Source: a virus | Taxonomy: Duplodnaviria; Heunggongvirae; Uroviricota; Caudoviricetes | DNA length: 9,840 nt | Virus record (IMG/VR): IMGVR_UViG_2728369593_000015 | Reading direction: 5' to 3' (one strand) | Shown: one piece after another, positions 1 through 3,000 of the stretch | How positions within the stretch are numbered: the stretch's first letter is position 1 | Layout of the letters: every line of letters starts with the position of its first letter | Program-made: the position numbers

Positions 1-3000
1 GATAGAAGGAAATAACATTAGTGATGTACGCATGGCGCCTCCCGCTAAGTTCTGCAATGATCAAACAGAACTCGCTACGTGCCCTTAAAACTCGATCATT
101 TAGCCCCTCCAAGGAGGATTCACCATGCGGTTGATTTTTTAATAAACAGTAAACAAAAAAGTCAAGGATTATTCATTCTGTTCTTTCATCATCGGCCACA
201 GCAATACCACAATGCCGCAGACCAGAGCGCCATCAGTCAGTACCAACATTATCCTGCTGGTGAAATCCATCATCACCATCACTAAAAGCAGGATCACAAC
301 AGCAAGCAGACACAGTTTATAAAACAATGTTCAGAAAACGCATTCAGCATGCCTAAGGTTCTATTCCTACGAATAGCCAACTTGCAACTTAAAATATTAT
401 TTATGCAGCCAATTAAATTCTGGTCCTTACAATATCAACCTGAAGATTCTTATCTTGTGCTGATTGATAAATGACAAACCTTTTACTACCTGCATTGAAA
501 GAAGTAGACAAAACCAGACAATTATCATAACGAGCAAGAACATAATACCAACCATCATTATAATTAATCATTTCATATTCTTTCTTAAACTGTGGTTTGT
601 AATATCCTGTCAGAAATGAAAAAAGCCAGAAATATGCCACAAAAGCAATCATCACAATCTCAAAAAAATGTTTTTTTATAAATGGCTTATCATAGAAGCA
701 TGATACCGATAAAAATCGCCCATAAGATCTTATCGAAATTGTAACCGCCAGCGCAATCGCTGCTGACAGTAGCAAAAGAGGTACCTGAATCTTCTGTCTC
801 AATATAGAAAACTCAATAATTGCCGGCACAAACAATAATTCCACAGCAAAATAAAGGCGAAATACATTTAGCTCTTGCATAGAATGTTTTCTTTTCACTG
901 CGAAAAAGAATACAACACCAATACCCCAACCGATAAGAAATATAGCAATGACGATAACTGCAAAAAATAAACTTCTGGCAACATCATCAACACCTGCACC
1001 TACAATCCACCATGGGAAGCCGTAGTAAAAAGAAGTACCCCATCCATAGAAATAAGCACTCCCCCATCCAAGGCATCCCATGTAGGCAATAAAAAGTGAA
1101 GAACTCCTGAGCAGCGCACCATCCTTCATAACCACCCCAATACAAGATGATAACATTGGCTTACAACTCATAACAAAAGCAATTCAATGCCGTCAAGAGG
1201 TTACAGGCTAAAAAAACTCTATTACATAGCAGCCAGCATGTTTACCGTACAAGTACAACTCAGGGCATAAAAAAAACCCACTCGGCAGCGGGTTTATACA
1301 TTTTTTACAACATACCAAATTTGCATGAAGTATATGGCTTTTAATCCAGTTTTGCAATATTTTGCTGTAAAAATGCTGCCTTTTGTTTTGAACGTGTTCT
1401 CGTCACAAGCAATAAAGCATCACTATCAAGCTGTAGAAAAATGTGCTTCATTGCAACCCAGCGTTCAGTAAATGTCTCGGACCAGTTTTTTGTTGTCACT
1501 CCCACCAATGATGCCAGTGTCTGGTATTCATAGGCCTCACGCCCTGCAAGTTCGCTCTTCACATCCTGTGCAGCCAGCCAGATTAACGTCTTCAGGCGAT
1601 CCAGTGTCTTACCTGCAATTTTTCTGTTACTTAACAAATCTTTAAACTCGCTCCATGCCCATTGCGTTATGGTGACCTGATGCCCCCATCGAACGCTTTC
1701 GCTGTAACACCAAAGCAACCATGCTTTCTGATGTTCATCGAGAGACAAAACCGCGCGGCGCCATGAAGAGGTTGAGAATTCAACCGGGCTGACCAAAGCA
1801 ATGGATGAACCTTTTGCGTACGACTGCTTACCGGAAGTCGGCGTATTATCCAGCGTAATCATCTTGCCAGTTACCACATCCAGAATGCGCGGCTTCTTTC
1901 GTTTGTATGTACCAGTATCAAATTGTGCATGCTCCTGCCAGGCTTCGAGCTGGCCTTTCGTTGCTCCGTTCAAGTCAGCAGTAGCTGCCATAAGTTGCTC
2001 ACGAACATACTGTAAATATTGGGTATTCATGCAGTAAATCCTTTCTATATTTTGGCATAATTCTTCAACATTCGGTAATCGTTCAAAACCGAATCGGGGA
2101 AACGACATAAGCACAGGAGCCCCCAGCGACAGCGAAGGAGTTCTGATATATAAGACTCAGACATCATTCATTCCCCGGTTCTCCAATATCTGTTTCACTC
2201 ATCATCCATAACTACCTGTAATTGCCCCCCTTTTTTTGTAACAGTTCTTATATTGCTATATAGAATAGCCATTACTAATGCTTTTAAATTTAATAAAATA
2301 AAAATTATAAAAAACATAAAACACCACGCAAACACACTTAATAAAAACACCGTTACATTAAAAGATAATAAAAACCGCAATAAAAAACGAATAAATCAAT
2401 TGTCTCACGCAATTATAAAACATCATATTGATTACGCACCTTGTATTACAAACTCATGTATGTAAAATACGCGCACCATTCAAAAAAAAGGAAGACAATA
2501 ACATATGAAAAAAAGTGTCATCGCTGGCGTCTTTATTGCTCTGTCATTTACCACGTGTTCAGCTATCGCGAACAGCCTTGCATTATCATTAGCAAATGAT
2601 GATGCAGGGAAGTTTCAACCAATACTTAATGATATTTATGGCAATAAACATGAAAACAGAGATGATTACTCACAAGGCTTATTTCTGGGATATAGCCACG
2701 ATATCTCAGACTCGAGCCAATTATCTCTCCATATTGCGCAAGATATTTACTCTCCATCAGGCAGTAATAAAAGACACAACACAGCTGTAACTGGAGACAG
2801 AGCTTTTAGTGCATACACTCACACTGGTATTGAATGGAACTCCCTTGCGAATGACTGGATTCGCTATCGATTAGGTACTGACATAGGTGTTGTTGGCCCC
2901 GACGCAGGCGGTCAGAAAGTACAAAATAAAGCTCATGAGATTATTGGGGCAGAAAAATATCATGCATGGGATGATCAAATAGAGAATCGCTACGGTTATA

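Follow-up and report, generated by a model that had tools for sequence, protein, structure and literature searches.

A probable phage 82-type late-gene switch with a short terminated leader in a lambdoid prophage

In a 9,840-nucleotide stretch of viral DNA (IMG/VR record IMGVR_UViG_2728369593_000015; the whole stretch is referred to here as the window), a Q gene and the sequences at and beyond its 3' end very probably constitute a lambdoid prophage's switch for late-gene expression, of the type known from phage 82 Q and its qut site. Q82-type switches are well-studied activators of lysis genes in lambda-like E. coli prophages, and the cassette described here is an already sequenced and annotated, ordinary member of this type rather than a new kind of system. 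This assignment draws directly on the family membership of the protein, on the presence, spacing and conservation of the cis elements (Table 1), and on identity with phage 434; it supports as essentially right a previous sequence-only reading, which had proposed a Q-like antiterminator followed by a compact late promoter and a short terminated leader.

For the start site, pausing, Q binding, NusA dependence and read-through, we rely on the biochemistry of phage 82, according to which the switch would operate as follows. A delayed-early transcript would supply Q, and the late promoter pR', which overlaps the Q gene at its 3' end, would fire constitutively from A1322; σ70 still bound to RNA polymerase would then re-bind the TGgTATGTT element (+6..+14) and keep the enzyme scrunched in a pause near +25. 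In the absence of Q, polymerase would escape from the pause and terminate at the hairpin and U8 tract 3 nt on, freeing an RNA of about 54 nt. With Q, binding of the protein to a Q-binding element (QBE) in the -35/-10 spacer and its NusA-helped joining of the paused complex would allow Q to ride with polymerase, leading to read-through of the terminator tR' and later terminators and hence to transcription of the membrane-protein gene and the TciB-like gene, followed in related prophages by the lysis genes.

Table 1. Coordinates of the features of the Q cassette and the genes that follow it (positions in the window)
Feature	Position	Strand	Basis or remark
Q gene, encoding a Q82-family antiterminator of 229 aa	1341..2030	-	ORF call, PF06323, PHROG 304, homology to phage 82 Q
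-35 hexamer of pR', TTGCAA	1352..1357	-	Consensus scan; unchanged in every aligned Q82-family cassette
17-nt spacer, AACTGGATTAAAAGCCA	1335..1351	-	Contains the Q stop codon and the predicted QBE (by homology)
-10 hexamer of pR', TATACT	1329..1334	-	Consensus scan; TATATT or CATATT in aligned relatives
Probable transcription start (AAA), with A1322 as +1	1320..1322	-	Homology to 82 pR'
Predicted σ70-dependent pause-inducing element TGgTATGTT (+6..+14), TG extended -10 plus -10-like hexamer	1309..1317	-	Leader alignment, 82 pR' homology
GTA at +15..+17	1306..1308	-	Alignments; GCC in phage 82 and most relatives (G/C-rich discriminator-like element)
Predicted pause site, +25/+26 (U25, A26)	1297..1298	-	82 pR' homology; in conserved TGTA
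Terminator (tR') hairpin, +28..+49, 9-bp stem, GCCG loop	1274..1295	-	Scan, folding, phage 434 annotation
U8 tract	1269..1276	-	Predicted RNA 3' end about 1270-1268 (+53..+55)
First gene past the terminator, membrane protein (PHROG 1521)	413..1156	-	ORF call, PHROG, phage 434 annotation
TciB-like ORF, next after the membrane protein	169-327		ORF call, phage 434 annotation

The Q gene, its known copies and the state of the prophage

The protein encoded at the Q position is a Q82-family antiterminator. The ORF begins with ATG at 2030 and ends with TAA at 1343-1341, which confirms the 229 aa originally called; in a profile search, residues 4-219 of the protein matched positions 1-216 of the 220 positions in Pfam model PF06323 (E=1.1e-91), PHROG 304 was matched with E=2e-108, and PF06323 was present in 120 of the 120 proteins among the matches listed for a total of 2,681 homologues. 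Q of phage 82 (X92588), a protein of the same family and length, is identical at 203 of 229 residues (89%, ungapped). Since it contains one Cys and four His, the window Q has no Cys4 zinc finger, and it was unmatched, even at E<=10, by the Q-lambda model PF03589 and by the Q21 model PF06530. The claim that the protein is not lambda-Q-like thus holds, and the comparison with the Q21 and Q82 profiles that had been suggested as a check places it in the latter family, i.e., among antiterminators and not in an unrelated family.

Phage 434 (OL657226) carries the same cassette, with 99.5% identity over window positions 1-3689 and 100% identity over 1150-2120; its identical Q gene, CPT_434_67, is annotated as 'Q82-like'. 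Genes CPT_434_65 to CPT_434_69 reproduce the arrangement of the window (lpxR, a ylcG-like gene, the Q82-like gene, the terminator, the membrane protein and a TciB-like gene), while upstream of lpxR the nin region of the window differs and includes insertion sequences. The phage 434 record labels the hairpin 'terminator' and annotates neither pR' nor a pause element. Phage 434 is a classical phage isolate. A 181-nt query (window 1240-1420) was at least 99% identical in approximately 620 of 5,426 complete E. coli genomes. For annotation, the present assignment fixes the late promoter, the predicted pause element and the terminator of a module carried by about one in nine of these genomes; carriers include O157:H7 and EPEC E2348/69 (NC_011601 739,962-740,016, plus strand), where the records label only 'antitermination protein Q'.

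Upstream of Q are nin genes, a truncated rusA and ylcG, and the late promoter and late (lysis) genes come immediately after it, which is the position expected of a Q gene; in related prophages, as seen in an O157:H7 prophage with an identical cassette, holin, lysozyme and spanin genes follow. The prophage in the window looks defective because an IS3-family element is located in the nin region (at about 4900-6200; an ALIL frameshift pseudoknot there scores 120 bits), IS21/IS100 extends from about 8349 to the window end and adjoins a 213-aa fragment of a replication protein, and rusA is reduced to 45 codons; in this host, normal induction of Q may therefore be lacking. A broader version of this argument is that the cassette, although intact, is an inert relic of a degraded prophage in which Q is never induced and the sole output is the constitutive short leader plus any transcription of downstream accessory genes from promoters of their own, which we consider unlikely but by no means negligible. 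Besides the insertion sequences and the truncated genes, an oppositely oriented lpxR that separates the nin genes from Q and a low base mean for Q in EPEC RNA-seq data (69, as compared to 226 for the downstream gene; Table S2, PMC8550237) are consistent with this explanation. However, the Q ORF is intact, as is every cis element, and all of them match phage 434 exactly, a phage that shares the lpxR insertion. An N-antiterminated transcript might still cross an insertion sequence; furthermore, a lack of induction would concern activity in the host and not the identity of the element as a Q82-type switch.

The terminator and the predicted short leader RNA

The terminator sequence, AAACCCGCU-GCCG-AGUGGGUUU (1295-1274) followed by a run of eight T, represents one of only two terminator-like sites in the 3.6 kb scanned, and the leader folds with a free energy of -15.8 kcal/mol (z = -2.9 versus shuffles). 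Counting from +1 at 1322, the last T of the run is +54 (1269) and the predicted RNA is 53-55 nt long, in agreement with the earlier proposal of a strong intrinsic terminator and a transcript of about 55 nt ending near 1268. It had also been proposed that the leader is much shorter than lambda 6S RNA, which is correct with regard to length (about 54 versus 194 nt) but does not make the leader peculiar; leaders with a predicted length of 50-55 nt are not unusual and represent the rule in one PF06323 subfamily. This Flotzy-like subfamily (Escherichia phage Flotzy, PP925827, and approximately 40 distinct IMG/VR cassettes) has a layout and register identical to the window, with TTGCAA, 17 nt, a -10 hexamer, a TTTGATATnTT pause element, a hairpin from +28..+35 (40 of 40 distinct cassettes) and a T run ending at +50..+55. 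By comparison, among 58 distinct 82-like cassettes with a proximal terminator, the hairpin was found at +28, i.e., the window type, in 5 and at +43..+71 in the other 53, with leaders of about 70-98 nt; homology between these 82-type cassettes and the window stops at about +15, and many of the long-leader cassettes inspected have a hairpin at +13..+38 that is absent in the window. A homologous hairpin is found in the same place in Flotzy, SfV and L110. RNAalifold applied to 22 compact leaders yielded no useful consensus structure because three terminator types occur in slightly different registers, and hairpin positions were counted sequence by sequence in place of such a consensus.

The terminated leader might, in addition to its role in the switch, act in trans as an Hfq-binding sRNA similar to StxS of Shiga-toxin phages, a pR'-tR' leader with sRNA function; antiterminated phage promoters have been proposed as a source of sRNAs (PMC7547250). 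As with StxS, a short RNA would be expected to be produced constitutively from pR' and to end at tR' in lysogens, and the GC hairpin and U8 at the 3' end of the leader are as in known Hfq-binding sRNAs, with an A6 run also present. Moreover, the window and Flotzy-like leaders are 80% identical (43/54, ungapped, counted by hand), whereas the corresponding Q proteins are only about 31% identical. We nevertheless judge an sRNA function improbable, as the requirements for pausing and termination suffice to explain conservation of the leader, which is unrelated in sequence to StxS and matched no family in an Rfam search. In addition, the intergenic region between Q and the downstream gene (E2348C_0685-0686) is absent among the EPEC Hfq RIL-seq RNAs in the parts of the tables examined, where very short RNAs may be under-sampled but where the lpxR-Q region and PasD2 do occur. 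The EPEC sRNA PasD, reported beside lpxR and Q, was considered as a candidate for the leader and rejected, since PasD2 (NC_011601 741157-741328) corresponds to window 1-127 and beyond; the PasD2 region matches STnc100.

The late promoter, its probable start site and the predicted pause element

The sequence-only reading placed the Q stop codon inside a near-consensus promoter on the same strand. The position, the hexamers and the 17-nt spacer were all recovered, with the stop codon in the spacer, as in phage 82, and the -35 hexamer in Q codons; the description as near-consensus, however, does not stand, as TTGCAA-17-TATACT matches 9 of 12 consensus positions and, with 9 sites found in 3.6 kb at the same stringency versus 11.8 expected in shuffles, the promoter match by itself is no better than chance. 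What lends the promoter credibility is the conservation of its hexamers, the spacer and the initial transcribed region across Q82-family cassettes from E. coli, Enterobacter and Klebsiella phages in which the Q proteins are only 62-88% identical. Despite the chance-level match and the location of the -35 within Q codons, it is highly improbable that the hexamers are accidents of Q coding, with no start here and with a hairpin that terminates the Q or early transcript or insulates the downstream accessory genes. Conservation does not end with the Q coding sequence but extends over the non-coding -10 and +1..+14, the Flotzy-like Q stops approximately 35 nt upstream of the same promoter (TTGCAA-17-NATATT), which therefore is not coding sequence there, and experiments have shown activity of the homologous promoter in phage 82 (PMC4914094, PMC5001585).

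The start near 1322 suggested previously lines up base for base with 82-type cassettes, where AAA is likewise located 7 nt past the -10, and 82 pR' begins with AAA, at which RNA polymerase stutters (PMC5001585); by homology, A1322 is thus the probable +1. Wells et al. 2016 (PMC4914094) placed the QBE of phage 82 in the stretch that separates the -35 and -10 hexamers. The window shares with phage 82 pR' both the TTGCAA -35 and AACTGGATT in the spacer; AACTGGATT is common to the 82-like cassettes fetched, for which selection used a 15-mer containing it, and Flotzy-like cassettes have AATGCAACAAAAT in its place as the presumed QBE. The spacer sequence thus varies with the Q subfamily and the σ70 pause element does not, as expected if the spacer is a Q-specific binding site. 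The phage 434 record also carries a CII-site/paQ annotation at 1352-1365, to which we gave no weight on its own because the window contains 4 occurrences of the consensus versus 2.6 expected.

According to Bird et al. 2016 (PMC5001585), the 82 pR' transcript starts with AAA, an extended -10-like element and GCC at +15-17 follow, and polymerase pauses at +25/26, where U is naturally present at +25. The 82-type register used here was taken from relatives matching every feature described in the text of that paper. The -10-like TATGTT hexamer (1314-1309, +9..+14) that had been put forward as a candidate σ-dependent pause site is present and is preceded by TG at +6/+7, and the resulting TGgTATGTT is in the register of the 82 pR' element preceding +15-17; T6, G7, T9, A10 and T11 are invariant among family leaders (19-sequence alignment). 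Given that the window also has U at +25 (position 1298), in the same register as 82-type cassettes, and an intrinsic terminator downstream, pausing would be expected by analogy near this site, as compared to +16 in lambda pR'. The one real departure from phage 82 is GTA instead of GCC at +15..+17, where relatives have GCC, GTC or GCT (usually GCC or GTC in Flotzy-like cassettes). In 82 pR', GCC at these positions sets pause strength and position, and substitutions of GCC to A cut the pause 2- to 5-fold, but the +15-17AAA mutant still pauses, with a shorter half-life (PMC5001585); GCC is thus a modulating and not a defining feature, and pausing in the window may, given the effect of comparable substitutions, be weaker or shifted relative to phage 82.

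The terminator hairpin of the window starts 3 nt beyond the predicted pause site. In such a compact cassette, Q would need to be fully engaged before polymerase exits the pause, and the two natural variations on the 82 pR' pause found here, i.e., GTA for GCC and a terminator 3 nt beyond the pause, could be used to probe the required pause duration and the speed with which Q82 confers termination resistance.

Relationship of Q82 to other Q families

We suggest, tentatively and with some doubt, that Q82-family antiterminators, including the window Q, may have a helical core fold in common with Q-lambda. Published work treats the three Q families as lacking obvious sequence similarity (PMC9388147), and they have also been reported to lack significant 3D similarity (PMC7171158), although no Q82 structure exists. 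A comparison of Q82 and Q-lambda family alignments gave an hhalign probability of 1.3%, a value that still leaves room for remote homology because both alignments, built from fetched loci, were shallow (Neff 2.3 and 1.5); a search for related loci to widen the Q-lambda alignment yielded only copies with 98-100% identity. Searches of the PDB by sequence, with a single sequence and with a 30-sequence profile, found no match, and matches in a BFVD fold search with Q were limited to its own family. A common fold would make two of the three Q families remotely homologous, with Q82 then probably acting at the RNA exit channel with the assistance of NusA, like Q-lambda.

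A Q82-family protein in a widespread cassette

The minus-strand cassette in the window is, with high confidence, best read as a textbook Q82 switch. It is an already known element, annotated, widespread and of a thoroughly studied kind, and its sequence-only reading as a Q-like antiterminator cassette is correct. The Q protein is covered over its whole length by PF06323 (E = 1.1e-91, Pfam profile search), a family named Q82 in the structural literature (PMC9388147; PMC7171158), also matches PHROG 304 ("anti-termination protein Q-like"), and is identical to phage 82 Q (X92588) at 203 of 229 positions without gaps. 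With a single cysteine it is unable to form a Cys4 zinc site like that of lambda Q; the PF03589 (Q-lambda) and PF06530 (Q21) models were unmatched at E <= 10, and the control Q proteins, from phages 2B8 and SfV, both matched PF03589 strongly. The ORF is thus not lambda-Q-like, as had been proposed from the missing zinc finger, and the suggested profile search against the Q21 and Q82 families comes out for Q82. A large protein database held 2,681 homologues, with PF06323 present in all 120 among the matches listed, and the cluster represented by a sequence identical to the window Q has 374 members. A divergent subfamily typified by Escherichia phage Flotzy (Flotzy-like) has a Q that is approximately 31% identical to that of the window and matches PF06323 with E = 1e-40.

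Searches of the PDB with the window Q found no Q82-family structure. A shallow alignment (30 sequences, 72-100% identical) yielded an AlphaFold2 model that was poor overall (mean pLDDT 59.7) and better over residues 91-220 (10-residue block means of 60-87). The top PDB match of this model in Foldseek was Q-lambda in the loading complex (7ubn_Q; E 0.21, probability 0.91, TM 0.35), and a profile-profile comparison between Q82 and Q-lambda, with shallow alignments, gave no signal; this amounts to a hint of related Q82 and Q-lambda cores, not a result.

Escherichia phage 434 (OL657226) is 100% identical to the window over 1150-2120, where its record annotates a "transcriptional activator/anti-terminator, Q82-like" gene and a hairpin "terminator", and 99.5% identical across 1-3689, which includes lpxR, a ylcG-like ORF, Q, the terminator, the membrane protein and the TciB-like ORF. 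A 181-nt query (window 1240-1420, i.e., the last 80 nt of Q, promoter, leader and terminator) was matched in 724 of 5,426 complete E. coli genomes, always on the chromosome, with at least 80% coverage in 620 genomes and at least 99% identity in 621 best matches. Downstream of the same cassette in an O157:H7 prophage come the membrane-protein gene and a DUF3927 gene, then genes for holin, lysozyme RrrD and a lysis protein, and at a greater distance nleB2 and nleC; this gene order places it exactly where a late-gene switch should be. What is left is of mild interest only, namely a natural GTA pause variant, a pause-adjacent terminator and the tentative Q-lambda fold likeness.

Promoter, pause element and compact terminator

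Features of the late-switch cassette and adjoining genes in the window
Feature	Position	Strand	Basis
Q ORF, 229 aa	ATG 2030 to TAA 1343-1341	minus	ORF call
-35, TTGCAA	1357-1352	minus	consensus scan
-10, TATACT	1334-1329	minus	consensus scan; 17-nt spacer from -35
+1, A (by homology)	1322	minus	register fixed by alignment to 82-type cassettes
Pause element, TGgTATGTT	1317-1309	minus	same alignment
U+25, predicted pause site	1298	minus	same alignment
Terminator hairpin AAACCCGCTGCCGAGTGGGTTT, then T run	1295-1274	minus	consensus scan
lpxR (lipid A deacylase)	2505-3467	plus	PF09982, E = 4.5e-40
Multi-pass membrane protein, approximately 250 aa, first gene after late terminator	413-1171	minus	PHROG 1521, no Pfam family
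TciB-like/DUF3927 protein, 52 aa	169-327	minus	PHROG 1470

The Q stop codon falls within the promoter spacer, as originally placed, but the promoter was too generously described as near-consensus, as its hexamers agree with the consensus at 9 of 12 positions and scanning of 3.6 kb yielded 9 promoter sites against 11.8 expected, so that the match by itself is not above chance; the significance of the cassette must therefore come from comparison with other sequences. The same scan found terminator-like sites to be rare, with two detected. Phage 82 pR' starts with AAA, causing stuttering (Bird et al. 2016, PMC5001585), and carries a pause-inducing -10-like element that is nearer consensus than that of lambda and has an extended -10, GCC at +15-17 with an AT-rich stretch after it, and a pause at +25/26, where +25 is naturally U (PMC5001585). 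Comparison cassettes (PhiR47_2, 606R7, the PPompW/Stx2a group and IMG/VR contigs; Q 62-88% identical to that of the window) read TTGCAAAACTGGATT..TATATT, 6 nt, then AAATCTGATATTTTGCCAATGTTGTAC, with AAA at +1, TG at +6/7, TATTTT at +9-14, GCC at +15-17 and U at +25, exactly as published for 82 pR'. Between -35 and +14 the window can be aligned to these cassettes with no gap, and an alignment of 19 family leaders shows T4, T6, G7, T9, A10, T11 and G15 in every sequence. The start near 1322 and TATGTT, the latter first suggested as a sigma-dependent pause signal, thus hold up as homologues of experimentally defined elements.

The Q-binding element (QBE) has been located between -35 and -10 (Wells et al. 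2016, PMC4914094). The spacer reads AACTGGATT(A/G)AA in the 82-like cassettes fetched, partly by construction because a 15-mer that includes it was used to select them, and AATGCAACAAAAT in every Flotzy-like cassette; the sigma70-recognized elements TTGCAA, -10 and TTTGATAT are common to both. Variation of the spacer with Q subfamily favors the QBE assignment, as the qut model predicts of a Q-specific site. Since the Flotzy-like Q stop codon lies approximately 35 nt upstream of -35, the promoter there is not a by-product of coding sequence.

From +15, similarity between the window and 82-type cassettes ends: phage 82 pR' has GCC at +15-17, whereas the window has GTA. In 82 pR', single changes to A at these positions halved the pause half-life and the triple change cut it approximately 5-fold (PMC5001585). 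Many of the long-leader 82-like cassettes inspected (e.g., loci L003, L006, L008 and L048) can form a +13 to +38 hairpin that encloses the +25 pause site, with stems UGCCA/UGGCA (82 type), UGUCA/UGAUA (L048, both sides changed), GCUGCC/GGCGGC (Klebsiella type) and GUCG/CGAC (Enterobacter type), in registers that vary by lineage; its 5' arm overlaps the GCC "discriminator", and a limited literature search found no description of it. The compact leader of the window lacks this hairpin and shows only weak AU/GU pairing over +8 to +27.

The proposed strong terminator behind a leader of about 55 nt was recovered, with the hairpin starting at +28 and the T run ending at +54, and a folding energy of -15.8 kcal/mol (z = -2.9) was obtained for the 61-nt leader. 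When distinct cassettes were counted with a purpose-made hairpin finder, 58 82-like cassettes had a terminator within +115; the hairpin starts at +28 in 5, all of the window type, and at +43 to +71 in the other 53 (T run end +69 to +98). All 40 Flotzy-like cassettes have the compact form (hairpin start +28 to +35, T run end +50 to +55), with at least three different stem sequences at the same position, and the Flotzy leader is collinear with that of the window (43/54 identical). A short leader is thus genuinely present but nothing unusual, and the window cassette resembles a combination of an 82-like Q, QBE and pause element with the compact leader that is frequent in other parts of the family. 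Lambda-type pR' promoters that serve a PF03589 Q, in SfV (L013 1201-1260) and 2B8 (L012 1200-1290), are followed by the same terminator module as well; the 2B8 copy is degraded by a 4-nt deletion in the 3' arm of the hairpin, which would weaken it.

Proposed switch and fate of the leader RNA

The protein family, the cis elements and their conservation are seen directly in the sequences compared. For start site, pausing, Q binding and read-through, work on phage 82 serves as the model, by which transcription would initiate constitutively at 1322, pause near +25 in a sigma70-dependent manner and, without Q, terminate at +53 to +55; Q bound at the spacer would join the paused complex, with NusA helping, and would then take polymerase past the terminator and on into the late genes. 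The window's prophage is probably defective. The nin region contains an IS3-family element (approximately 4900-6200; two minus-strand ORFs, with a 120-bit match to the ALIL frameshift pseudoknot at 5773-5889), the stretch 8349-9840, up to the window end, is taken up by an IS21/IS100-like element (plus-strand istA) that adjoins a 213-aa replication-protein fragment, and rusA (4085-4222) is cut to 45 codons; induction of Q in this host is uncertain for these reasons. EPEC E2348/69 matches the window at 99.8% identity in two pieces covering 71% of it, and the gaps are probably the two insertion sequences.

That the pR'-tR' leader also acts as an sRNA would have precedent, as the corresponding leader of Stx phages was shown to be the Hfq-binding sRNA StxS and antiterminated phage promoters were proposed as an sRNA source (Sy et al. 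2020, PMC7547250), but we regard it as very improbable here. E2348/69 carries the cassette, with E2348C_0685 (739255-739944) as its Q gene; its leader falls in the E2348C_0685-0686 intergenic region, which is absent from the portion of the RIL-seq interaction tables of Pearl Mizrahi et al. 2021 (PMC8550237) covered here, which does contain the lpxR-Q region and PasD2.

Neighboring genes and sites

PasD2, an Hfq-binding sRNA of the STnc100 family homologous to EcOnc13, is encoded on the same strand as the late terminator, approximately 1.1 kb further downstream; its 5' part is window 1-158 (minus), where the window start truncates it. The Rfam model RF02076 gives 33.8 bits there (E = 3e-4) and 41.4 bits for the full phage 434 copy (L001 4963-5167), and PasD2 of E2348/69 (NC_011601 741157-741328) corresponds to window 1-127 plus 45 nt outside the window.

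The sequence TTGCAATATTTTGC at 1352-1365 (plus) fits the CII consensus TTGYN6TTGY, overlaps the palindromic pR' -35 hexamer and is labeled a CII site with the "paQ" -35 in the phage 434 record. A CII/paQ assignment is unsupported, with four consensus matches in the window against 2.6 expected and, by eye, no convincing -10 where one would be expected.

The accessory gene lpxR, inserted between the nin genes and Q, has to be traversed in antisense by the early rightward transcript before Q is reached; the arrangement is the same in phage 434 and O157:H7 prophages. The EPEC RIL-seq tables, in the part covered, list chimeras in which MgrR is joined to lpxR coding sequence or to the lpxR-Q intergenic region (NC_011601 738923-738945), and an lpxR segment in the PasD2 target-motif table (PMC8550237); the intergenic segment corresponds to window 2339-2361 (minus). 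The membrane-protein and TciB-like genes are likewise accessory and occupy the interval that separates the late terminator from the lysis genes.
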